Sequence record: OZ335959.1 | Length of the DNA stretch: 64,000 nucleotides | Source: a phage | Strand: one strand, 5' to 3' | Shown: piece by piece, positions 1-64,000 of the stretch | Position numbering within the stretch: position 1 is the first letter of the stretch | Layout of the letters: each line of letters opens with the position of its first letter | Translations under genes and position numbers: made by a program | Notes under the pieces: model-generated | The model's input: the letters and a program-made list of their open reading frames with translations, nothing else | The model's database searches: none | Told to the model about the DNA's origin: nothing

Positions 1-1833
<1,833 letters not shown>

Positions 1834-3844: not shown

Positions 3845-3852
3845 TTGATTAT

Positions 3853-3866
3853 GGGGCTTCGGCCCC
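3853..3866 (+). terminator. GC hairpin GGGGC-UUCG-GCCCC immediately after gene 18 (RNA stability element or weak terminator)
   Basis: Perfect 5-bp GC stem with UUCG tetraloop. Confidence 0.5.
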
Positions 3867-3883
3867 TATTCTCGAGGAAACAA

Positions 3884-4501
3884 GTGATTATTTCTAAGTT
3901 TGTTAAAGTGAAAATTGTACCATCAAATTTTAAACATTATCAATCAAAGGGTTATAAATTAACACCTCTTGGAGCGGTTAAACATGGATTTAGGTATTAT
4001 GATATTGATGTTAAAGTTGAAGACATTAAAGGTAATACCGCGTATGTAAAATGCCGTTGCGATAAATGTGGAATTGAATATAACCAACGCATTGGAAGAA
4101 ACACTGATATTTGTCGTGATTGCCGTCATAAAGATAAAATGCGCAATAATTCATATGGTTCCGCGAATAAAGGAAAAACAGTAGAATGTATGCATGGCGT
4201 AAATCATCCAAGATGGAACCCAAATAAATCTGAAATGCGTGAATATATTTCATTGGTATATAAAGAAACTCGTAAGCATAAGAAAATTTGGTCAAAATGG
4301 CCAAATGCTGATAAAATAGGAGTGTGCGGTACAAAAGGTGCTTACCAACTTGATCATAAGGTATCTATCAAATACGGTTTTGATAATTTAATTCCTGCTG
4401 AAATAATTGGCGGTATTAATAATTTAGAAATAATCACTTGGGAATCTAACCGAGAAAAATCAAAAAGAAATAGTGTAGATCTTTGGGATTTACTAGAATG
4501 A
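3884..4501 (+). CDS. HNH-family (HNH_3-like) endonuclease-like protein with N-terminal Cys4 zinc-ribbon-like motif, about 205 aa; start uncertain (GTG 3884 with GAGGAA RBS, or ATG 3851)
   Basis: C-terminal LDHKVS...GGINNLEIITWESNREKSKRN resembles the HNH_3 motif; CRCDKCG...CRDCRH Cys pairs; the ORF-track TTG start at 3845 reads through a GC hairpin. Confidence 0.6.
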   Translation: MIISKFVKVKIVPSNFKHYQSKGYKLTPLGAVKHGFRYYDIDVKVEDIKGNTAYVKCRCDKCGIEYNQRIGRNTDICRDCRHKDKMRNNSYGSANKGKTVECMHGVNHPRWNPNKSEMREYISLVYKETRKHKKIWSKWPNADKIGVCGTKGAYQLDHKVSIKYGFDNLIPAEIIGGINNLEIITWESNREKSKRNSVDLWDLLE

Positions 4502-10502: not shown

Positions 10503-10517
10503 TCTTTGACGATTTAA

Positions 10518-10546
10518 GGGACCTTCGGGTCCCTTTAGTTGTTTTT
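10518..10546 (+). terminator. Rho-independent terminator after gene 23
   Basis: GGGACC-UUCG-GGUCCC followed by TTTAGTTGTTTTT. Confidence 0.7.
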
Positions 10547-10550
10547 ATGG

Positions 10551-10558
10551 TATAAATA
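10551..10558 (+). promoter_or_regulatory. T4-type late promoter upstream of gene 24
   Basis: Exact TATAAATA after the gene 23 terminator. Confidence 0.55.
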
Positions 10559-10585
10559 AATCATATAAACCAAAAGGAAAGCGCA

Positions 10586-15612: not shown

Positions 15613-15641
15613 TAGATATATTTATTACATGGTATTTAGAC

Positions 15642-17153
15642 ATGACTGACATTAAAGTACATTTTTATGATTTTAGTCACGTGAGAATTGATTGTGAAGA
15701 AAGTACATTTCATGAACTCCGTGATTTCTTTAGCTTTGAAGCCGATGGGTATCGTTTTAATCCAAAGTACAAATATGGTCACTGGGATGGACGAATCCGT
15801 CTTTTAGATTATAATCGTCTTCTTCCATTCGGCTTAGTCGGGCAAATTAAAAAGTTCTGCGATAACTTTGGCTATAAAGCCTGGATTGACCCACAGATTA
15901 ACGAAAAAGAAGAATTATCAAGAAAAGATTTTGATGAATGGCTTTCTAAATTAGAAATCTATTCAGGAAATAAAAGAATTGAACCACACTGGTATCAAAA
16001 AGATGCAGTGTTCGAAGGATTAGTTAATCGTCGTAGAATTCTTAATCTTCCAACATCCGCAGGTAAATCTTTAATTCAAGCTTTGCTTGCTCGGTATTAT
16101 TTGGAAAATTATGAAGGTAAAATTCTTATCATTGTTCCAACAACTGCTTTGACAACTCAGATGGCTGATGACTTTGTTGACTATCGTTTATTCAGTCATG
16201 CAATGATAAAGAAAATCGGCGGTGGAGCATCAAAAGATGATAAATATAAAAATGATGCACCGGTCGTTGTTGGTACATGGCAAACTGTAGTAAAACAACC
16301 AAAAGAATGGTTCTCACAGTTTGGAATGATGATGAATGATGAATGCCATCTTGCTACAGGAAAAAGTATTTCATCTATCATATCAGGTTTAAATAACTGC
16401 ATGTTCAAATTTGGTTTGTCTGGTTCATTACGTGATGGCAAAGCTAATATCATGCAGTATGTTGGAATGTTTGGCGAAATATTTAAGCCAGTAACGACTT
16501 CTAAATTAATGGAAGATGGACAAGTAACTGAGTTAAAAATTAATAGTATTTTTCTTCGCTATCCCGATGAGTTCACTACTAAATTAAAGGGAAAAACTTA
16601 CCAAGAAGAAATAAAAATTATCACTGGACTCAGTAAAAGAAATAAATGGATCGCTAAATTAGCTATTAAGCTTGCGCAAAAAGATGAAAACGCTTTTGTC
16701 ATGTTTAAACACGTATCGCACGGTAAAGCTATTTTCGATTTAATTAAAAATGAATACGATAAAGTTTATTACGTATCAGGGGAAGTTGATACCGAAACCC
16801 GCAATATAATGAAAACCTTAGCTGAAAACGGTAAAGGAATAATTATAGTAGCTAGTTATGGTGTATTTTCTACCGGTATTTCAGTTAAAAATCTGCATCA
16901 CGTTGTTTTAGCACACGGTGTTAAATCTAAAATTATTGTATTGCAAACAATAGGTCGCGTATTACGTAAGCATGGTTCCAAAACAATCGCAACAGTCTGG
17001 GACCTCATCGATGATTGTGGTGTTAAGCCAAAATCTGCTAATACGAAAAAGAAATATGTTCATTTGAACTATCTTTTAAAACACGGCATTGATCGTATTC
17101 AGCGCTACGCAGATGAAAAATTTAATTACGTAATGAAAACAGTTAATTTATAA
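15642..17153 (+). CDS. uvsW: UvsW RNA-DNA and DNA helicase, 503 aa
   Basis: Sequence matches recalled T4 UvsW; helicase motifs LPTSAGKS and DECH. Confidence 0.93.
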   Translation: MTDIKVHFYDFSHVRIDCEESTFHELRDFFSFEADGYRFNPKYKYGHWDGRIRLLDYNRLLPFGLVGQIKKFCDNFGYKAWIDPQINEKEELSRKDFDEWLSKLEIYSGNKRIEPHWYQKDAVFEGLVNRRRILNLPTSAGKSLIQALLARYYLENYEGKILIIVPTTALTTQMADDFVDYRLFSHAMIKKIGGGASKDDKYKNDAPVVVGTWQTVVKQPKEWFSQFGMMMNDECHLATGKSISSIISGLNNCMFKFGLSGSLRDGKANIMQYVGMFGEIFKPVTTSKLMEDGQVTELKINSIFLRYPDEFTTKLKGKTYQEEIKIITGLSKRNKWIAKLAIKLAQKDENAFVMFKHVSHGKAIFDLIKNEYDKVYYVSGEVDTETRNIMKTLAENGKGIIIVASYGVFSTGISVKNLHHVVLAHGVKSKIIVLQTIGRVLRKHGSKTIATVWDLIDDCGVKPKSANTKKKYVHLNYLLKHGIDRIQRYADEKFNYVMKTVNL

Positions 17154-26067: not shown

Positions 26068-28124
26068 TACATCTTGAACTTTTTAGACATTCCATTGATG
26101 TTAACCAAAGAAGCCAAGATTTGAGAAACTTCGTTTTCCTCTTCTTTTGATTCTTCTACAAGGAATTGATTAAACCCAGCCATTGGACGAACTTCCCCAG
26201 TTTCCATTAGATGATCGCCATCATATACCGATTCTTCTAATTGTTCAGAAGGAGGAACGATTGTGCCTTCTATTAGATACTTGTTATAAGCAGTTTCTTT
26301 CATCATGTACGTGCTTACTTTATTAATCTTCAGCAAAATTCCACGCGGCAGAATAACTTCAGCTTCTGATGGAAATCCTGATAAATGACCTGGAACGATA
26401 ACTTTGATTCGCTCAGCCCCTTTAATTACCATACCTACGATAGTTTCATCATCTTCATTAGCATACGCAGAATGACTACCCATATGCATTAAATCTTCAG
26501 CATCAACAGAACCTTCTCCTTCACCAGAAAATACTGCACCTGAATCATCTAGAGCCATATAGTTTTTACCATGCTCACCGAAGATATTTGGTTTAAGCGA
26601 TGTTGATACGAAGTTCTTAAAATAGAACATTTTATTTTCAATATTATGACGTAAAGTTTTAAAAGTAACTTCTTGCCCACGATAAAGCGTAGTTCCTGGA
26701 GGAAGAACTGATCCTTTGGCGAATGCAGAATCCAGCGTCTCGATGTGTTTAATAGCTCGTTCCATGTATTCTTCACGGGTAGAATCTGGTTTACCCAAGA
26801 GGAACGAGTTCATTTCAACATATGAATCTGCACAATAATCTTCAATTACATCAGACTCAGCCTGAGTTAATCCTTTTGGAGTTACTTCGGTGCTTGCGTA
26901 TTCATATGCCTGAGCAGCAGATTCATTAATCAATTTATAAATGCCATTCATGACAAATCGAATAATAGCTGCCTTTTCGTCTGGTGTGGCTTTAGAACCT
27001 TTAACTAAATCATTGATAATTTTCTTAATAACATCAAAGCTATTAGAAATATTAATGTCAGCGAGATCGCTCAAAATTTTATCGGTTTTATAATCAAAAA
27101 ATTCTTTATTCTTTAAATATTCTTGAGAACCTTGATGTGTTATATCGCTCTGCAGTCTGATAGACGGATCACGTAAACGTGCATGGGCCAATGCAATATC
27201 ATTTCGGAAGCTTTCTAGTTCATAATCGTTAGATTTAAAACGAGAAGCACTTCTCATACCACCGATAGCTCCTTTGCCGAAGTTTGAACCAATCTGAATA
27301 ACGCCAGAGTTCATTGGTCCTTCTGCTTTATATACCGGAACTTTAGATTCAAACTCTTGATATTTCTTAGCAGCGAAGCTATCGCCCTGGAGTGAAGCAT
27401 CGACAGTAGAATATTGAGCTTGTGCTGCCAATCGACGACTAATTTTAGTTTTCTGAATAACAGCTTGATCCGTGCGCTTATCATTTTCTAAAGCAATAGA
27501 AGCGGCAACAGCAACAGCTTTAGGAACAGCATTACCTGTTTTAACATCTACATAAACATCACCAACCTTTGATTCAACTTTTGTGAATAACTCAGTTGAA
27601 ATAGGAGGTACACCTGGAATGTCTTCTAAATTGGCATTTTTACGGTAAACCATAATATATGCATACTTTTTATCATAATCCCAGATTTCCTTTAAAAGAA
27701 CATATCGACCTGCTCCTTTAGTACGTACTAAACGGTCAGCAATAACTTGCATTTGACGAGCTGCGCCATTTGTTTTACTTTTTAGTACGCGGAATAGGCA
27801 TGCATCAATTTTATACTGTTTCATTGTTTGAAGAGCAGTATCAAAAACGGCATTAATGACACCAATTGGATTTCCACCCAAGTTTTTAAGTTTAACTAAT
27901 GATAGTTTCTCATTAACACCTATCATTACGATATGCATCATTTTATCGCCTGGCTTAACGTTTTTATTTGTATCACCACCAGAGGTGTATGTACAAAATC
28001 TAAATCCAGGAAGCACGCTTTCTTCACCGGCTTGAATAGCAAAAATTTGAGGTATTTTATGCTTAGGATTTAAGTTAACAACCGGCGCCGAAGCGCCGTC
28101 AAATAATTCTGTAATAAGTTCCAT
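26067..28124 (-). CDS. Alt-like ADP-ribosyltransferase paralog, 685 aa
   Basis: N-terminus MELITELFDG shared with alt; C-terminal R/STS/E triad (YRGQ, FVSTSL, EAEVILPRG). Confidence 0.8.
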   Translation of the reverse strand: MELITELFDGASAPVVNLNPKHKIPQIFAIQAGEESVLPGFRFCTYTSGGDTNKNVKPGDKMMHIVMIGVNEKLSLVKLKNLGGNPIGVINAVFDTALQTMKQYKIDACLFRVLKSKTNGAARQMQVIADRLVRTKGAGRYVLLKEIWDYDKKYAYIMVYRKNANLEDIPGVPPISTELFTKVESKVGDVYVDVKTGNAVPKAVAVAASIALENDKRTDQAVIQKTKISRRLAAQAQYSTVDASLQGDSFAAKKYQEFESKVPVYKAEGPMNSGVIQIGSNFGKGAIGGMRSASRFKSNDYELESFRNDIALAHARLRDPSIRLQSDITHQGSQEYLKNKEFFDYKTDKILSDLADINISNSFDVIKKIINDLVKGSKATPDEKAAIIRFVMNGIYKLINESAAQAYEYASTEVTPKGLTQAESDVIEDYCADSYVEMNSFLLGKPDSTREEYMERAIKHIETLDSAFAKGSVLPPGTTLYRGQEVTFKTLRHNIENKMFYFKNFVSTSLKPNIFGEHGKNYMALDDSGAVFSGEGEGSVDAEDLMHMGSHSAYANEDDETIVGMVIKGAERIKVIVPGHLSGFPSEAEVILPRGILLKINKVSTYMMKETAYNKYLIEGTIVPPSEQLEESVYDGDHLMETGEVRPMAGFNQFLVEESKEEENEVSQILASLVNINGMSKKFKM

Positions 28125-28127
28125 GAT

Positions 28128-30221
28128 TTATCCTTGAACGAACTTGTAAGGCATGTTTGTAATATCTATGCAAGACGCAATAATTCCAAGAGATGATTCG
28201 ACTTTCTGTTTAACATTTGATGAAACAAATGATGCAAAATCAACTCTGTCTTCTATTTCAATATCACCTGTCATTGCAACTACTTCACCAGTTTCCATTA
28301 GACGGTCACCGTCATAAATTACTGATTCGGTGAGTTCTTCCGTAGTCATAACTTCAGCTTGAATGAGTTTTGTATTATTAGATGTTGTTCCGTCATTATT
28401 AGAAGCATCAGTTATTTTATTAACTTTGACCATCAATCCGCGTGGTAGAATAACTTCAGCTTCTGTTGCTATTCCGAGACTTCCTGGATATACAACATTA
28501 ACTTTATGAGCTCCATCAATTGCCCATCCTATTTGAACTTTAACGTATTCAGGATTTTCTTTATACGCTCTTATTTCATTTGGATTAATAGTTATTCCTT
28601 CTTCATTTTTATCAACTGTCAATTCATTACGAGCTTCTGGTTCTAAAAGACCAATACCAGCATGTGTAATTCCAAAACGTCCAAAAATGATAGGAGTTAA
28701 AGAAGTAGATACAAAATTTCTGAAATAGAACACTTTATTTTTAACTAGTGCTTCGTATATAGGAGCAGTCATACTTTGAGCACGATAAACTGTAATGCCT
28801 TCTGGTATACGGTCACCATTTTCAAAAGCTGAATCTAAGTTATTTATAGCAGATTCAATAGCCTTTTCATTCATTACATCATAGTTCTGAGGATTATAAC
28901 GTCCCAAAAGAAGATTATTGATGTCAGTATATCCTGAACCACAATACTCTCTAATGCCGCGCTTTTGTGATGGAGTATATTTAGAACCATCACGGGCAAT
29001 AGTAATATCAATCATTGGACCTGCACCAATTCCAGAAAAACTATAAATCATTCTTTTGAGGAATTTAGTTTTTGTTGCGTTCCAGGAATTTTTAGTTATT
29101 TCTTCCCAGACTTCATCTGGCTGTCCTTTACGTGTTTTATTATGTTTATCAAGCCAATTATCTTTATATTCTTCAAAGAGTTGATTAACGGCTGCTGCGT
29201 ATTTTTCTAAACATTTTATTGAAGTAGTTGGTTCATTTTTAATCGCATTAAGAATTACATCTTTAATTTTTTCAGAAACTTCATCAACTTCACTTTTTGA
29301 AAAGAATTTATAGTCATAGTGAAGTTCATCTGCAGTTCCTTCAGCAATAATTTTTGCTGCCTTAGTTTTAGAAGCTAATGAATTAATTCCAAGTTTCATT
29401 TCTTCTGCTTCGGGAATTAAAGGAGCGGTAGCAGGTTTATTGAAATTAGCTGCGGTAGATTCATACTTCTGGAATAATTCACTTTCAAATCTAGAAGATT
29501 CTAATGATTGACTTTGTGCAATTGCTCTACGGGAAATTTTAACTTTAACGATTACAGCTTGGTCAGAACGTTTATCGTTTTCTTGCGCAATAGATGCTGC
29601 AATGGCCTCATTTTTAGTTACTTGAGCTCCGGTATCTTTATTGATATAAACATCGCCGACCTTCGATTCAACTTTAGTAAAGAGCTCTGTACTAATTTCC
29701 GGAACTCCTGGAATGTCTTCTAATGATACATTTTTGCGATGTATAAGAATATATGCGTACTTTTTATCGTAATCCCAGAGTTCCTTAAGAAGGACGTATC
29801 TGCCACCTGAACGACTGCGGATAAGTCTATCAGCAATAAGTTGAATTTGACGAGCTTGACCAGCAGTTTTAGACTTAAGAATACGGAGCATACAGGCATC
29901 AATTTTATACTGACGCATCGTTTGCATTGCAACAGTAAAAACTGAATTGATGTAATTAATTGGGCTTGGACCGAGACCTTTTAATTTAGCAATTGAACCT
30001 TTAGCAGTTAATGTAAAAGGAACAATATGCATCATTTTATCGCCCATCTTTAAATCGCGATTAGTATCACCTCCAGATGTATAGGTACACAAACGAAAGC
30101 CTGGTTGTTCAATTGCGTCATCAACATGAACTGAAAAAATTTGCGGTATTTTCTTCTTTGGATTTAAGTTTGTAATCGGAAGAGTAGTATCTTCGTCAAA
30201 TAATTCTGTAATGAGTTCCAT
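28128..30221 (-). CDS. alt: Alt ADP-ribosyltransferase (capsid-packaged), about 697 aa
   Basis: Closely matches recalled T4 Alt ends; R/STS/E motifs; second ATG chosen for RBS spacing. Confidence 0.85.
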   Translation of the reverse strand: MELITELFDEDTTLPITNLNPKKKIPQIFSVHVDDAIEQPGFRLCTYTSGGDTNRDLKMGDKMMHIVPFTLTAKGSIAKLKGLGPSPINYINSVFTVAMQTMRQYKIDACMLRILKSKTAGQARQIQLIADRLIRSRSGGRYVLLKELWDYDKKYAYILIHRKNVSLEDIPGVPEISTELFTKVESKVGDVYINKDTGAQVTKNEAIAASIAQENDKRSDQAVIVKVKISRRAIAQSQSLESSRFESELFQKYESTAANFNKPATAPLIPEAEEMKLGINSLASKTKAAKIIAEGTADELHYDYKFFSKSEVDEVSEKIKDVILNAIKNEPTTSIKCLEKYAAAVNQLFEEYKDNWLDKHNKTRKGQPDEVWEEITKNSWNATKTKFLKRMIYSFSGIGAGPMIDITIARDGSKYTPSQKRGIREYCGSGYTDINNLLLGRYNPQNYDVMNEKAIESAINNLDSAFENGDRIPEGITVYRAQSMTAPIYEALVKNKVFYFRNFVSTSLTPIIFGRFGITHAGIGLLEPEARNELTVDKNEEGITINPNEIRAYKENPEYVKVQIGWAIDGAHKVNVVYPGSLGIATEAEVILPRGLMVKVNKITDASNNDGTTSNNTKLIQAEVMTTEELTESVIYDGDRLMETGEVVAMTGDIEIEDRVDFASFVSSNVKQKVESSLGIIASCIDITNMPYKFVQG

Positions 30222-37433: not shown

Positions 37434-37666
37434 AGTACGCCATACACCCTTTGTGCTTCAACTAATCCATCAAAATCCAATTTGAGATGTGTTATTTGAT
37501 CACCATCACCTGGATTCACAATTACTAATACTGAACGAGGAGTTTCGGTAATAACACGAACCGATGTTTCTGGAAATCGTTCAGAAACCTTATTTACCAA
37601 TTCCTGGGCAAATAGTTTAACTTTTTCTTGGAATTCTTTAACAGTAATTGGTTTTTCACTTAGCAT
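37430..37666 (-). CDS. Hypothetical protein (cd.2 position), 78 aa
   Basis: ATG start; packing. Confidence 0.5.
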   Translation of the reverse strand: MLSEKPITVKEFQEKVKLFAQELVNKVSERFPETSVRVITETPRSVLVIVNPGDGDQITHLKLDFDGLVEAQRVYGVL

Positions 37667-38187
37667 GTTGATCCCAGCTCCTTACTTTCAACGTTTTTAA
37701 CTAATTTGACAGAAACTAATTCGGCATCTTGGGTAATCATTACCGGGCCTTCTTCATACTCTTCAAGATATTCTAGAGCTTTCTTTTTAGCTTCTTCCTT
37801 CGTATCAGTTTGAGCATAGATATAAAACATACAACCAGTAATACCTACTACTTTCCACTTAATTTCTTTATCAGTTTTAATTTCAAATTTACTGACAGAA
37901 TCATCTTTTTGAACTTCTTCGAAAAAAGAATATTCTAACATATAAGCAATTGAAAATAACGGGCTAACTTTATAGGATTCTCCCATTACATCAACAGCTT
38001 TATACCAACGGTCATCAATTTCGCGTTTAATGCTAATAACATTTTTCGCAGGATCTATTTTTACTTTAAATGAATTTTCCCCAATAAATTGAGCAATTCG
38101 TTTATTAGCCCCACAGGTTTCATTAAAAATATCTTTATATCCAGCTTTAAAACGATAAACCTTATCTTCTTCAAACCATTCGCTCAT
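37660..38187 (-). CDS. Hypothetical protein (cd.3 position), 175 aa
   Basis: ATG start with GAGGAA RBS; early promoter upstream. Confidence 0.55.
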   Translation of the reverse strand: MSEWFEEDKVYRFKAGYKDIFNETCGANKRIAQFIGENSFKVKIDPAKNVISIKREIDDRWYKAVDVMGESYKVSPLFSIAYMLEYSFFEEVQKDDSVSKFEIKTDKEIKWKVVGITGCMFYIYAQTDTKEEAKKKALEYLEEYEEGPVMITQDAELVSVKLVKNVESKELGSTC

Positions 38188-38918: not shown

Positions 38919-40139
<1,221 letters not shown>

Positions 40140-40143
<4 letters not shown>

Positions 40144-43189: not shown

Positions 43190-44359
43190 TTAAAAATATT
43201 TTTTAAAACTCATCATAACTTTATCATCAACATCATTATCAATCTGTGCTACAAGGTAAGATGACAGTTCTACTTCCTGTGGCGCGGATTGAACATTATC
43301 AGAATTAAGGTATTCACGAATCCAAGGATACGGATGTTTAACCGGAGCATCGGTAATTGGGCATGGAAGACCACACTGTTTCATACGAGATACAGTTAAG
43401 TAATCAATAAAGCTCCACATGCTATTTGTATTTAATCCAGGAACATCACCATCTTTAAATAAATGAACTGCCCAGTCTTTTTCTTGACGGTTAACTTCCA
43501 TGAAAATATCAACTGCTTCTTGTTCACACTCTTTGGCGATTTTAACCCATTCATCACCATCAGTGCCAAGTTGAAGTTGACGAATAATATATTGGGTGCC
43601 TTTAAGGTGAAGCTGCTCATCACGTGCAATGAACTTCATAATCTTGGCATTACCTTCCATGATTTCCATGTTCTTATGGAAGTTAAAGGTACATGCGAAA
43701 GATACATAAAAACGAATAGCTTCCAATGCGTTAATTACATGCAAGCAAAGATAAAGAGATTTCATTAGTGCTTGTTTAGTACATTCAACAACTTTGCCTA
43801 ACTCTTCTTTGCGAAATCCTTCTGATAAAATTCCTTCATAATCTTCAACCGCATTCTGATATTCACGAGTCTTAACTAGAACATCATCGTAATAGCGACC
43901 AATGGACTCGGCACGTTTCATAATAGCTTTATCTAATACAATCTCATCAAACACTTTTGACGGATCAGTATAAAGATTTCGCATAATATGAGTGTATGAA
44001 CGGCTGTGAATAGTTTCACTAAAAGTCCATGTAGCAACCCATGTATCAAGGCTTGGGTCTGAAATTAATGACATAAGTACAGCAGACGGTGCACGACCCT
44101 GAATGCTATCTAGAAGTGATTGATACTTCAGGTTATTAGTAAAAATATCTTGCTGATACTGAGGAAGCTTGTTAAATTGCGCAGCATCCATCATCAAGTT
44201 TACTTCTTCAGGACGCCAGAAAAATGATAATTGCTTTTCGGTTAAATCTTCAAAAACTTTATGGCGTTGAATATCATAACGCGCAATACCAAGACCTGAC
44301 CCGAAGAACATAGGTTCTTTTAAAACATCAACTGGATTTGTATTAAAAACTGTGCTCAT
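43190..44359 (-). CDS. nrdB: Ribonucleotide reductase small subunit, uninterrupted, 389 aa
   Basis: Continuous ORF of full length; no intron. Confidence 0.95.
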   Translation of the reverse strand: MSTVFNTNPVDVLKEPMFFGSGLGIARYDIQRHKVFEDLTEKQLSFFWRPEEVNLMMDAAQFNKLPQYQQDIFTNNLKYQSLLDSIQGRAPSAVLMSLISDPSLDTWVATWTFSETIHSRSYTHIMRNLYTDPSKVFDEIVLDKAIMKRAESIGRYYDDVLVKTREYQNAVEDYEGILSEGFRKEELGKVVECTKQALMKSLYLCLHVINALEAIRFYVSFACTFNFHKNMEIMEGNAKIMKFIARDEQLHLKGTQYIIRQLQLGTDGDEWVKIAKECEQEAVDIFMEVNRQEKDWAVHLFKDGDVPGLNTNSMWSFIDYLTVSRMKQCGLPCPITDAPVKHPYPWIREYLNSDNVQSAPQEVELSSYLVAQIDNDVDDKVMMSFKKYF

Positions 44360-44410: not shown

Positions 44411-46675
44411 TCATAATTTACAGGATGAACAATCTTCAGCTTTTGGAGTTTCTATTTCATAATCATCAGTACCAGAACCGTCACGGGTATTATGATAATA
44501 GAAATTTTTTCCGCCAAAATACCAAAAATACAAAAGGTCATCAATCATTATTGACATTGGAACCTTTCCTTTTGGAAAAATCTGTGGGTCATAATATGTA
44601 TTCGCTGAAGCTGATTGACACACCCATTTAAGCATAATAGCTACCTGCGTAAGATAAGGTTTATTACCTTTCTTAGCTAATTTCCACGTATAATCATATA
44701 GGTCTATGTTATGCTCAATATTGGGCACGACTTGATTAAAGGAACCCTCTTTTGATTCTTTAACAGAGACTGGTCCACGTGGAGGCTCGATACCGTTTGT
44801 ACTGTTAGAAACTTGGGAAGATGACTCACATGGCATAAGCGCTGATAATGTGCTATTACGGATGCCAAAGAGCTTAAGGTCTTCCCGCAGCGACGACCAG
44901 TCACAAACGTATTTTGGAGCTGCGATTTGGTCAATCTTTTTATTGTACCAGTCAATAGGTAATTCGCCTCGAGACCAACGAGTGTCTGAATAATATTCGC
45001 AAGGTCCTTTTTCTTTGGCGAGCTTAATGGATGCTTTAATGAGTCCATACTGTAATCTCTCGAATAGTTCATGTGTTAAATCGTTAGCATCTTCATAAGA
45101 AGCAAAATTACTTGCCAGCCAAGCTGCATAGTTAGTAACACCTACGCCAAGGTTTCGACGCTTTTTAGCTTTTTCTGCTTCAGGAACCGGATATCCTTGG
45201 TAGTCCAAAAGATTATCAAGAGCACGAACTTGGACTTCTGCCAATTCATTAATTTTATCTTGGTCTTGCCAATCAAAGTTATCTAACACAAATGCAGATA
45301 ACGTGCACAATCCAATTTCAGCATCAGGGCTATTCACATCATTTGTTGGAATAGCAATTTCACAACACAAGTTACTCTGACGAATAGGTGTCTTTTCACG
45401 AATAAATGGCGTATAGTTATTCGTATTATCAATGAACTGTACATAAATCCTTGCTGTTCCTGAGCGTTCAGTCATGAGCAATTCAAACAGTTCACGGGCT
45501 TTAATACGCTTTTTACGAATATTAGGGTCTTTTTCTGCAGCTTCGTATAATTCACGGAAACGGTCTTGGTCTTTAAAATAAGAATAGTAAAGTTCGCCGC
45601 CCATTTCATGCGGACTGAACAAAGTAATGTAATCATTCTTTCCAAATCGTTCCATCATCAAATCATTCAGCTGGACGCCATAATCCATATGACGGATACG
45701 GTTTTCTTCTACACCTTTGTTATTTTTCAAAACGAGAAGATTTTCAACTTCCAAATGCCAAATAGGATAATAAGCAGTAGCAGCGCCGCCACGAATTCCA
45801 CCCTGTGAGCATGATTTAACAGCAGTCTGAAAATGTTTCCAAAAAGGAATAACACCAGTATGGCGTACTTCGCCTGTGCCAATCTTAGAACCTTCGGCAC
45901 GAATCATACCAACGTTAATACCAATTCCAGCACGTTTGGAGATATATTCAACAATTGAAGCGGAAGCCTTATTGATAGACTTTAATGAATCACCTGCTTC
46001 AATAACAACGCATGAACTAAACTGTCGAGTCGGAGTACGGCAACCAGCCATAATAGGAGTTGGTAATGAAATCTGTCGAGTAGATACTGCTTCATAAAAA
46101 CGAATAACATGTTTTAATCTATCAACAGGTTCATCTTGATGTAATGCCATTCCAATAGTCATAAATGCAAACTGTGGAGTTTCATAAATTTGACCAGTGG
46201 TTTTATCTTTAACTAGATATTTTTCTTTTAATTGCATCGCCCCGGAATAAGTAAATTCCATATCCCGTTCGTGCTTAATTTTTGATTCTAAAAATGTAAT
46301 TTCTTCTGCTGAATATTTTGACAACAATTCAGGGTCGTATTTACCTTCATTTACACAGTAAGAAATATGGTCAATAAATGAACGTGGTTCATACTGCCCG
46401 TAAACATGCTTACGAAGAGCGAACATTAAGCAGCGTGCAGCTACATATTGATAATCAGGCTCTTCAACTGAAATAGAATTCGCAGCAGCCTTAATTACAA
46501 TGGTTTGAATGTCATCAGTTGTCATTCCATCACGGAGATATGATTTAATATTTTCATATAATTCATAAGGATCTACAGATGTTCCTTCAGCTGCCCAAGA
46601 TAAAACTTTAATAATTTTTTGCGGATCAAAGCTCTGAGAAACACCACTACTTTTGATAACATTAATTAATTGCAT
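44411..46675 (-). CDS. nrdA: Ribonucleotide reductase large subunit, 754 aa
   Basis: N-terminal ATP-cone; length matches T4 NrdA. Confidence 0.95.
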   Translation of the reverse strand: MQLINVIKSSGVSQSFDPQKIIKVLSWAAEGTSVDPYELYENIKSYLRDGMTTDDIQTIVIKAAANSISVEEPDYQYVAARCLMFALRKHVYGQYEPRSFIDHISYCVNEGKYDPELLSKYSAEEITFLESKIKHERDMEFTYSGAMQLKEKYLVKDKTTGQIYETPQFAFMTIGMALHQDEPVDRLKHVIRFYEAVSTRQISLPTPIMAGCRTPTRQFSSCVVIEAGDSLKSINKASASIVEYISKRAGIGINVGMIRAEGSKIGTGEVRHTGVIPFWKHFQTAVKSCSQGGIRGGAATAYYPIWHLEVENLLVLKNNKGVEENRIRHMDYGVQLNDLMMERFGKNDYITLFSPHEMGGELYYSYFKDQDRFRELYEAAEKDPNIRKKRIKARELFELLMTERSGTARIYVQFIDNTNNYTPFIREKTPIRQSNLCCEIAIPTNDVNSPDAEIGLCTLSAFVLDNFDWQDQDKINELAEVQVRALDNLLDYQGYPVPEAEKAKKRRNLGVGVTNYAAWLASNFASYEDANDLTHELFERLQYGLIKASIKLAKEKGPCEYYSDTRWSRGELPIDWYNKKIDQIAAPKYVCDWSSLREDLKLFGIRNSTLSALMPCESSSQVSNSTNGIEPPRGPVSVKESKEGSFNQVVPNIEHNIDLYDYTWKLAKKGNKPYLTQVAIMLKWVCQSASANTYYDPQIFPKGKVPMSIMIDDLLYFWYFGGKNFYYHNTRDGSGTDDYEIETPKAEDCSSCKL

Positions 46676-46992
46676 AAGTCCTCAACTTGAAAATCGTCTT
46701 TAAACAATCGGTTAACTATATGAGCTATTATATCACCATGACACGGCTTTGGTTTACATGTGCATCCTAGCCTCATTCCACGTAAAGGCTCTAAATGTGC
46801 TTTAGTTATTTCTCCGGATTTAATTCGACGTATAAAATCTTTTTTGAATAATTCAATGGCAGCCTCCCGGCTGCCAGCATCTTTACCGACGTAATTTCCC
46901 CAAAATGTACCACGGTGAATATTAACATCAAAGTCGGATTTATATTTATTCACTACCTGGCATAGACGGCCCGCGCGGTGATAATTCGTCAT
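46666..46992 (-). CDS. DUF4326-like small protein (nrdA.1 position), 108 aa
   Basis: GTFWGN...CTCKP..CHGD pattern. Confidence 0.5.
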
Positions 46993-47209
46993 ATTGTTTT
47001 TCCGTTAAAACAGTAATATCATAATAACAGTCAGAAGAAGTTTTAACTGTGGAAATTTTATTATCAAAATACTCACGGGTCATTTTATGAGTATAATATT
47101 TTTTGCCATAAATGATAATAGGCTGATTTGGTCCTGGAACTTCTAACTCACTCGGATTAGGAAGTGTAAAAAGAACTACGCCAGAAGTATCTTTAAATCG
47201 TAAAATCAT
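46946..47209 (-). CDS. Hypothetical protein (nrdA.2 position), about 87 aa
   Basis: ATG four codons inside the TTG track start. Confidence 0.45.
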
Positions 47210-47232
47210 ATATCCTCGCAATTAAATTAAAA

Positions 47233-48092
47233 TTATACCGCCATCTTTCCTTTAATTGGCGGGTGAGATTCGTAACCTTTAAGAACGAAATCTTTAGGTC
47301 TAAGTTTAAGAACATATTTTAATTGTTCTTTAGTAGAAAGATATCGAAATTTATAAGGTAGACCACTTATTACCAGCTCACAAAGCTCTTTAGGTTCACG
47401 ACGCAAAATTTCTTTACATTGTTCTACGTGATTCATATAGATATGAGTATTACCACCAGAAAATATCAAATCTCCCGGAATAAGATTACACATCTTAGCT
47501 ACAATATGAACTAATGCAGCATATGATGCAATATTAAATGGAAGACCGAGGAAAACATCTACCGAACGTTGATACCACTGCAAATCCAAATAGCCATTAC
47601 GCACATTAAACTGATAGAACATATGACAAGGTGGTAATGCCATATATTTAAGTTCAGCTGGATTCCATGCAGAAACAATTTGACGCCTATCATTTGGTAG
47701 TTTTTTAATACGATCAACAACTTCTATAATTTGGTCTACACCACCAAAATCGCGCCATTGTTTTCCATAAATTGGACCAAGTTCACCACTATGGTATCCT
47801 AAATCTTTTGCTTGATTTTCGTAATTTTCATCCCAGACTGTTTTGCCTTGAATTAATGAATCATGTTGAATTAATCGCAAATCATTGACATTTGTGCTTC
47901 CCGATAAAAACCATATTAGTTCAGCAATGCAAGCTTTCCAGGCGAGCTTCTTAGTCGTTACTGCAGGAAAACCTTTAGTTAAATCCCAGCGTAATTTAGT
48001 ACCGAACAAAGCAATTGTTCCTGTGCCTGTTCGGTCATCGGTTTCGTAGCCATTTTCTAGGATATCTTTAATTAAAAATTGGTATTGTTTCA

Positions 48093-48093
<1 letters not shown>
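47233..48093 (-). CDS. td: Thymidylate synthase, uninterrupted, 286 aa
   Basis: Starts MKQYQ as in T4 TS; continuous reading frame, no intron. Confidence 0.95.
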
Positions 48094-49125
<1,032 letters not shown>

Positions 49126-49133
49126 TTTATCTC

Positions 49134-49469
49134 CTAATATAAAGGATCGAGAACATATCCACTAGCTTTAATCATTTTAATTAATGTTAACATTCCTTTA
49201 TTAACTGCTAGTGAAATTTCATCAAAAACTTCATCACTAAAAAGTTCTAACACGCCCTTCTGAACTTTTAGTTTACAGCCAACAATTTCGTCATCGCCTA
49301 TAGTAAATTCGTTTCCGCCAATTCCACCGAAAAACTTAATTACGCCAGTTAACTGTCTTCCACGAGAATATGGGTCGTGCGATAAAGTAATATGAGTCAC
49401 CCCAGGTACAGTTTTAAATTGACAGCGAATGTTTACTTGAGAAATTCCAGTTACATGAATGTCAGACAT
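49134..49469 (-). CDS. Hypothetical protein (frd.2 position), 111 aa
   Basis: ATG start. Confidence 0.5.
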   Translation of the reverse strand: MSDIHVTGISQVNIRCQFKTVPGVTHITLSHDPYSRGRQLTGVIKFFGGIGGNEFTIGDDEIVGCKLKVQKGVLELFSDEVFDEISLAVNKGMLTLIKMIKASGYVLDPLY

Positions 49470-51470: not shown

Positions 51471-51540
51471 TTTTATTTCCTTTTTAATTTAATTAACAGT
51501 TGGTGCTATGACGATGTATGACCTCATAGCTGGTCAGTGA
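51471..51540 (-). promoter_or_regulatory. Gene 32 5' leader: autoregulatory translational operator (pseudoknot plus A/U-rich site)
   Basis: Minus-strand GCUAUGAGGUCAUACAUCGUCAUAGC... followed by UUAAUUAAAUUAAAAAGGAAAUAAAAAUG. Confidence 0.7.
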
Positions 51541-51569
51541 GATAATTATAATCTATTTATAATAAGCAA

Positions 51570-59556: not shown

Positions 59557-63679
<4,123 letters not shown>

Positions 63680-63709
63680 TTTGAATAAATATCCTTAAAA
63701 GGAGGGTCT

Positions 63710-64000
63710 ATGGCAGCACCTAGAATATCATTTTCGCCCTCTGATATTCTGTTGGGTGTTCTAGATCGCTTGTTCAAAGATAACGCTACCGGGAAGGTTC
63801 TTGCTTCCAGAGTAGCTGTCGTAATTCTTTTATTTATGATGGCGATTGTTTGGTATAGGGGAGATAGTTTCTTTGAGTACTATAAGCAATCAAAGTATGA
63901 AACATACAGTGAAATTATTGAAAAGGAAAGAAATGCACGCTTTGAATCTGTCGCCCTGGAACAACTCCAGATAGTTCATATATCATCTGAGGCAGACTTT
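63710..64000 (+). CDS. t: Holin t, 5' partial (runs off the window end)
   Basis: Translation MAAPRISFSPSDILLGVLDRLFKDNATGKVLASRVAVVILLF matches T4 holin T; AAGGAGGG RBS. Confidence 0.85.
   Translation, partial: MAAPRISFSPSDILLGVLDRLFKDNATGKVLASRVAVVILLFMMAIVWYRGDSFFEYYKQSKYETYSEIIEKERNARFESVALEQLQIVHISSEADF

Follow-up and report, generated by a model that had tools for sequence, protein, structure and literature searches.

An intron-less thymidylate synthase gene of a T4-like phage as a potential target for homing by I-TevI

The stretch of phage DNA analysed here (64,000 nt of sequence record OZ335959.1, referred to as the window) was assigned to Tequatrovirus by megablast, the top 15-kb matches (ESh26, Sfk20) being about 97% identical. 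The td gene is encoded on the minus strand, which had been left unstated in the original prediction, and extends from an ATG at 48093..48091 to a TAA at 47235..47233, comprising 286 codons plus the stop. With 861 nt, it is exactly as long as the spliced td of T4. The program-made list of open reading frames starts the gene at a TTG at position 48105 (290 amino acids); the ATG is preferred as start codon, since the resulting protein begins with MKQYQ as does Td of T4. Residues 2 to 286 of the translation cover all 266 positions (1 to 266) of the Pfam profile Thymidylat_synt (PF00303) without a break (317.7 bits with a cut-off of 24.3, E = 6.7e-95), and a match of this strength in a single stretch places the identity of the protein as thymidylate synthase far above chance. 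The motifs NDRRQIVSAWN, ALPPCHMFYQF and YQRSVD are found in the translation, as is YQRSVDVFLGLPFNIAS; the cysteine of the PCH motif and the conserved arginines (DRR, QRS) are taken by us to represent the catalytic motifs of ThyA. The open reading frame, its translation and the full-length Pfam match bear out the continuous 286-codon frame that had been claimed for td. Judged from its sequence, the gene product would make dTMP from dUMP, with no RNA splicing needed for its formation.

The gene is located in a nucleotide-synthesis cluster of the T4 type (frd-td-nrdA-nrdB). Upstream, frd is 87% identical to T4 frd at the nucleotide level, while downstream nrdA.2 (DUF5496), nrdA.1 (DUF4326), nrdA and nrdB follow (Table 1). 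A small gene, orf68, is found at the frd-td junction and is coupled to its neighbours at both ends, via ATGA with the frd stop and via TAATG with the td start. It represents a 201-nt insertion specific for the window when compared to T4, which has nothing at this junction. No match to orf68 was obtained in Pfam or NCBIfam. It is annotated in vB_SsoM_113 and P922, both with an intron-less td, in PD112, which carries an ORF-less intron, and in UTI-E4 with a full I-TevI intron. The top td match in the phage collection is that of Shigella phage vB_SsoM_113 (96.7%); no record in this collection is identical to the phage or to its td allele.

Table 1. Features of the td region and of other loci in the window (positions with a sign are counted from the intron insertion site; the slash in the sequences marks this site).
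Feature	Window position	Strand	Evidence or remark
td, thymidylate synthase	47233..48093	-	ORF, Pfam PF00303, gap-free T4 alignment; uninterrupted
T4 td intron insertion-site equivalent, unoccupied	47544..47545	-	T4 junctions and synteny map
38-bp I-TevI homing-site equivalent, -27..+11	47534..47571	-	CAACGTTCGGTAGATGTTTTCCTCGGT/CTTCCATTTAA
T4 homing site, -27..+11 (reference for comparison)			CAACGCTCAGTAGATGTTTTCTTGGGT/CTACCGTTTAA
CAACG cleavage motif, -27..-23	47567..47571	-	same as T4
15-bp linker-contacted spacer	47552..47566	-	13/15 as in T4; positions 1 and 4 altered
20-bp primary binding region equivalent, -10..+10	47535..47554	-	16/20 identical to T4
nrdA.2 homologue, downstream of td	46946..47209	-	Pfam DUF5496, E = 1.6e-58
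orf68, 68 aa, frd-td junction	48093..48299	-	phrog_9550, E = 1.3e-45; no known domain
frd, dihydrofolate reductase, upstream of td	48296..48877	-	Pfam DHFR_1, E = 5e-18
Two ORFs between frd and frd.1, not in T4	48880..49469	-	81 aa, phrog_3183; 111 aa, DUF7247
217-aa ORF between genes 18 (tail sheath) and 19	3845..4501	+	phrog_5104 (unknown function); only 7 bp there in T4
175-aa ORF between cd.2 and cd.3, not in T4	37660..38187	-	phrog_3710, faint goF-like match
107-aa ORF between pseT and pseT.1, not in T4	39820..40143	-	phrog_2364

The annotation of T4 (AF158101) gives td as a join of two pieces that enclose I-TevI, in agreement with the earlier statement that a group I intron carrying the gene for this enzyme interrupts td in T4. 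The T4 gene (143235..145112) is 1878 nt long compared to 861 nt in the window, a difference of 1017 nt. Its exon 1 ends with CTTGGGT, the intron extends from TAATTGAGG to ATAATG, and exon 2 starts with CTACCG. The alignment with the T4 exons that had been proposed for locating the insertion site was run with the spliced T4 td (the T4 gene minus nt 550..1566) and placed the site between nt 549 and 550 of td. Both sequences align with 0 gaps; 809 of 861 nucleotides and 278 of 286 amino acids are identical (52 nt and 8 aa differences). The synteny map shows the same, with 1017 nt present only in T4 and a gap of 0 nt in the window between 47544 and 47545. A hidden intron, named beforehand as the observation that would speak against the prediction, was not found in td, which is 861 nt long, gap-free against spliced T4 td and devoid of internal stop codons.

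No match to the Rfam family Intron_gpI was obtained at the gathering threshold across the 64-kb window. In control searches, the ORF-less 262-nt td intron of PD112 was detected with 73.8 bits. The td intron of T4 (1017 nt, with the I-TevI ORF) and the nrdB intron were both missed at the gathering threshold in T4 135000..160000. Since T4's own introns escape this search, a negative Rfam scan leaves room for group I introns with an ORF, and because of this weak control the colinearity with spliced T4 td is taken as decisive. A homologue of I-TevI was not found in the window either (tblastn with the T4 protein, best E = 0.39), so that nothing in these 64 kb would protect or pre-cut the td site.

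Besides the td intron with I-TevI, several other T4 elements are absent from the window, namely segD, segE, segG, the nrdB intron with I-TevIII, and mobE together with nrdB.1. The T4 homing endonuclease proteins of this set gave no tblastn match to the window. The places of segD (between genes 23 and 24, 10514..10573), segE (before uvsW, 15629..15647) and segG (between genes 32 and 59, 51534..51568), which are free-standing GIY-YIG endonuclease genes in T4, hold only 19 to 60 nt in the window. As every T4 homing endonuclease gene is absent in the 64 kb, in crosses with T4 the phage would serve as an all-round recipient. The nrdB gene (43190..44359, minus strand) consists of one frame of 389 amino acids and is devoid of the approximately 600-nt intron of T4 carrying the defective I-TevIII; the corresponding junction is near 43693. 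The gap between nrdA and nrdB comprises only 51 nt, hence mobE and nrdB.1 of T4 are absent too. In T2, nrdB is nicked by MobE, which brings in the nrdB intron (PMC2790892). The nrdB locus of the window is probably a second target for homing or marker exclusion.

Further insertions relative to T4 are listed in Table 1, of which the 217-aa ORF between genes 18 and 19 looks like a candidate for an unannotated free-standing HNH homing endonuclease. Homologues are found in 118 phage records, in 48 of them at full length (e.g. RB5, RB10, Sf22 and HY03), and all are annotated as hypothetical. The residues C71, C74, C89, D169, H170, N192 and N201 never vary among 43 homologues, at least 90% of which also retain C92. 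This residue pattern suggests a zinc ribbon and an HNH-like DH..N..N motif, and it is from these conserved motifs, together with sub-threshold matches of the family to HNH_4 (9 members) and to the treble-clef finger DUF4379 (17 members), that the putative nuclease function is drawn. The protein has no sequence match in Pfam, NCBIfam or PDB, and a Foldseek search of PDB with the AlphaFold model (pLDDT 88.4) returned nothing with E < 2. Larger differences to T4 are located in two regions. The alt / alt.-1 to alt.-3 region (26087..29414) shows 69 to 80% identity to T4 with a rearranged gene order, and for the distal tail-fibre region (59744..64000), which follows gene 36, no alignment of at least 150 nt to T4 90-160 kb was obtained. 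Both probably correspond to the regions that are commonly hypervariable in T-even phages.

I-TevI recognizes a 38-bp site including a 20-bp bound region centred on the point of intron insertion, and cuts 23 and 25 nt upstream of the latter (5'-CA^AC^G-3') (PMC2988022). The critical bases of the CAACG motif (5'-CNNNG-3') are C1 and G5 (PMC5009752). In the alignment to spliced T4 td, 32 of the 38 positions of the homing site are identical, the changes from T4 to the window being -22 C>T, -19 A>G, -6 T>C, -4 G>C, +3 A>T and +6 G>A, all of them synonymous. The recognition sequence, for which an intact state had been anticipated, is therefore intact with respect to CAACG, to its native spacing and to the absence of indels, but it is not identical to that of T4, from which it differs at 6 of 38 positions. 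With 0 indels between cleavage motif and insertion site, the distances of 23 and 25 nt are those of T4. From the T4 geometry, nicks would be expected between 47568 and 47567 in the sense strand and between 47570 and 47569 in the antisense strand.

Within the spacer contacted by the linker of I-TevI, positions 2, 6 and 8 as well as C3 carry the T4 bases in the window. In assays with Tev-TALE fusions (Tev-mTALEN) instead of native I-TevI, one-off changes lowered the activity only at spacer positions 2, 6 and 8, C3T was the only substitution that dropped activity to background, and natural phage td spacers with 53 to 87% identity to that of T4 were cut like the T4 spacer, with the exception of RB32 (PMC4065259). 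Nothing on spacer preferences was found in PMC12663268. The binding region is altered at -6, -4, +3 and +6, while TTTAAT at +7..+12 is kept. The I-TevI operator in the T4 intron likewise deviates from the homing site at +3 and +6, and its affinity for the enzyme equals that of the homing site (PMC2988022). In general, I-TevI is described as tolerant of sequence change (PMC5009752, PMC2988022). With an empty insertion site, an unchanged CAACG, spacer changes at positions reported as tolerant and a binding region about as similar to that of T4 as the one of T2 is, the td of the window may well act as the potential homing target that was proposed originally.

The 38-bp site contains 6 of the 52 nucleotide differences between this td and that of T4 (nominal binomial P = 0.026, range 0.02-0.03, for the 38 nt specified in advance). 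That substitutions might cluster within this site as a sign of selection or escape was considered and rejected, since 91 other 38-nt windows of td differ from T4 at six or more positions each and are thus equally divergent or more so.

The preferred reading is that of a functional, intron-less td which would be a competent target for I-TevI, to which we assign a probability of about 0.8. As the insertion site is empty, the two half-sites for I-TevI are contiguous. In a cell infected jointly with an intron-plus phage, e.g. T4, I-TevI would bind around window positions 47554..47535 and then cut CAACG (47571..47567), 23 and 25 nt upstream of where the intron inserts. The break would be repaired from the intron-plus td, by which the intron would be copied together with at least the roughly 25 nt that separate cut and insertion site in exon I of the donor. 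The co-copied stretch would restore TTGGGT, the partner of the guide sequence of the intron. The identity of the gene, its lack of an intron, the state of the target sequence and the homology on its flanks are shown here, and from these we infer binding, cleavage and homing by I-TevI at this td by analogy.

The homology needed for double-strand-break repair from intron-plus donors is present on both flanks. Upstream of the insertion site, 549 nt are 94.4% identical to T4, followed by the 201-nt orf68 insertion, and downstream 3.1 kb (window 44415..47544, corresponding to T4 140420..143546) are 95.1% identical. The orf68 insertion breaks the homology with T4 549 nt upstream, but not that with UTI-E4 or PD112 as donors.

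A comparison of eight alleles, four of them intron-plus (T4, UTI-E4, ESh32 and PD112) and four intron-less (T2, vB_SsoM_113, P922 and the window), revealed a division at the end of exon I. All four intron-plus alleles end with CTTGGGT (-6T, -4G), whereas all four intron-less alleles have -6C combined with a base other than G at -4. TTGGGT or TTAGGT is also the end of exon I in three td genes of IMG/VR (L037, L043 and L073) that are more divergent and carry an intron at the same insertion site. Their Td proteins share 58 to 77% amino acid identity with that of the window, the tblastn match ends at residue 183, and the exon end is followed by TAATT or TAATG...GGCC. The end of exon I pairs with the internal guide sequence of the intron (P1). 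When a 30-nt segment of exon plus intron was folded with three different exon ends, an in-register 8-bp hairpin (-7.3 kcal/mol) was obtained with that of T4, compared to register-shifted folds with the exon ends of the window (-5.5 kcal/mol) and of T2 (-3.1 kcal/mol). The simplest reading is that positions -6 and -4 are constrained or hitch-hiking in intron-plus alleles and drift silently in intron-less ones. Because the cut lies at -23/-25, homing copies the donor from the cut through the insertion site, so that a matching exon end would arrive with the intron, as deduced from double-strand-break repair as modelled in PMC2988022.

A natural precedent might be seen in UTI-E4, which shares 94.8% identity with the window across 15 kb and combines the frd-orf68-td layout with a full I-TevI intron. 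Scored at the positions that distinguish the window from T4, its td is window-like from -534 to -319 (16/18 sites), T4-like from -313 to -4 (11/12 sites) and again window-like from +3 to +18, at the start of exon II, where the bases are also shared by PD112. The T4-like tract abutting the intron is consistent with co-conversion of exon I, an asymmetric form of which has been described for I-TevI (PMC2988022). UTI-E4 was rejected as a proof of homing into a window-like allele, since the region is mosaic overall and frd of UTI-E4 is T4-like too.

Among T4-like phages td is most often intron-less, which represents already known biology. Of the 589 phage records in which td was matched, 260 also matched the T4 intron to any extent; 197 of these contain at least 80% of the intron and the others include records with a shortened or ORF-less core. 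At least 329 of the 589 records (56%) are thus intron-less. Since the late 1980s it has been known that the td intron is polymorphic and what this implies for the mobility of introns (reviews: PMC2988022, PMC3984707). The presence or absence of the td intron in T-even phages is the textbook system of intron homing, to which this allele alone adds little. It provides a clean empty homing site, one data point on the natural variation of I-TevI targets, and an example of which silent positions would drift once the constraint by P1 pairing is gone.

From its sequence, the td of this Tequatrovirus phage appears functional and either never split or no longer split. A former td intron that was lost precisely, e.g. 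by recombination with an intron-less phage, is rather unlikely, even though intron-plus and intron-less alleles are interleaved among close relatives such as the intron-plus UTI-E4, and degenerate ORF-less introns like the 262-nt one of PD112 exist. Both observations fit a cycle of gain, decay and loss (PMC5009752, PMC3984707). However, the allele has no trace of T4-type co-conversion next to the site, positions -22, -19, -6, -4, +3 and +6 all being non-T4, and it matches the intron-less P922 and vB_SsoM_113 at these positions. Loss by recombination would leave no signature, and an allele that had lost its intron in this way would have the same sequence appearance as one that was never invaded.

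It is less probable still, and altogether unlikely, that the intron is missing on account of poor or resistant substrate properties of the allele, its six synonymous changes reducing binding or cleavage by I-TevI enough to block homing. The relevant bases would above all be -4C and -6C in the binding region as well as -22T and -19G beside the cut. The nominal enrichment of differences in the 38-bp site (6/52, P = 0.026) and the division of the eight alleles at -6 and -4 point in this direction, as does the td of RB32, a natural variant with reduced substrate quality (PMC4065259), from which it is evident that natural variation can matter. Moreover, -19G and -4C are absent from T2. On the other hand, the local enrichment is unexceptional within td, and the division at -6 and -4 is explained more simply by P1 pairing with the exon sequence TTGGGT (-7.3 kcal/mol in the T4 hairpin), a stretch obligatorily co-converted during homing. 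In addition, the enzyme is sequence-tolerant with only C1 and G5 being critical (PMC5009752, PMC2988022), and T2, with -6C and -4T, is invaded efficiently (PMC2790892). The more specific claim that the site variant -22T/-19G/-6C/-4C/+3T/+6A, which is also found in P922 and one IMG/VR contig, constitutes a naturally homing-resistant td allele is very improbable. If it were true, a lineage would have become immune to the T4 td intron through drift at silent sites of the target or selection on it, and such resistance would help to explain why more than half of the T4-like phages are intron-less despite frequent co-infection. Finally, a misleading frame, in which td would be a pseudogene or harbor a small cryptic intervening sequence, has a negligible probability, for which no support was found apart from the blindness of Rfam to ORF-bearing introns of T4, given the exact length of 861 nt, the gap-free alignment to spliced T4 td, the lack of stops, the full-length Pfam match, the catalytic motifs and the fact that a small intron similar to the ORF-less one of PD112 would have been detected by Rfam.

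The competent, intron-less td favoured here can be compared with several known alleles. In T4, td is found at the same genomic place with exons that are 94% identical at the nucleotide level, and it has the flanking genes nrdA.2, nrdA.1, nrdA and frd in common with the window. T4 td contains a 1017-nt group IA intron between nt 549 and 550 with the gene for the 245-aa GIY-YIG endonuclease I-TevI, whereas the window has neither of them. While frd of T4 overlaps td directly (ATGA), orf68 is located between both genes in the window. Escherichia phage vB_vPM_PD112 (PD112) has the frd-orf68-td layout, the start of exon II (CTTCCATTTAATATTGCATCA) and -22T in common with the window, but its td is split by a 262-nt ORF-less group I core (2550..2811 in L004) following an exon I that ends with TTGGGT. 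An ORF-less or shortened intron of about 320 nt is present in the td of Shinka. The closest database alleles are those of vB_SsoM_113, Enterobacteria phage P922 and the IMG/VR contig L007, all with an intron-less td, the same neighbours and a homing site that is identical to that of the window or 1 nt off. The identity extends over a 90-bp site in P922 and over the 38-bp site in L007, while the three td genes differ from that of the window by 28 to 48 nt scattered along the gene.

An experimentally proven recipient for comparison is T2, the classical intron-less partner of T4 in crosses on intron homing, whose td is likewise intron-less and uninterrupted with 861 nt and an intact CAACG, and 95.0% identical to that of the window at the nucleotide level (43 nt differences). 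At the frd-td junction, T2 encodes an unrelated 115-aa ORF (phrog_1928) in place of the 68-aa ORF of the window (phrog_9550). The homing site of T2 differs from that of T4 at 6 of 38 positions as well (-22, -7, -6, -4, +3 and +6), and its binding region is identical to that of T4 at 15 of 20 positions. T2 and the window share -6C, +3T and +6A and both vary from T4 at -22 and -4, the window having -22T, -19G, -7C and -4C compared to -22A, -19A, -7T and -4T in T2. The only bases of the window site found in neither T4 nor T2 are -22T, -19G and -4C; of these, -22T is also present in vB_SsoM_113 and in the intron-plus PD112, and -4C in vB_SsoM_113 and P922. T2 is devoid of mobE and was scored as an intron-less nrdB recipient in crosses (PMC2790892). 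In crosses of T2 with T4, I-TevI was recovered in the progeny at 2.1 +/- 0.3 times the input, which is super-Mendelian (PMC2790892, Table 2). Since T2 is invaded efficiently, a site at least as divergent as that of the window can be invaded.
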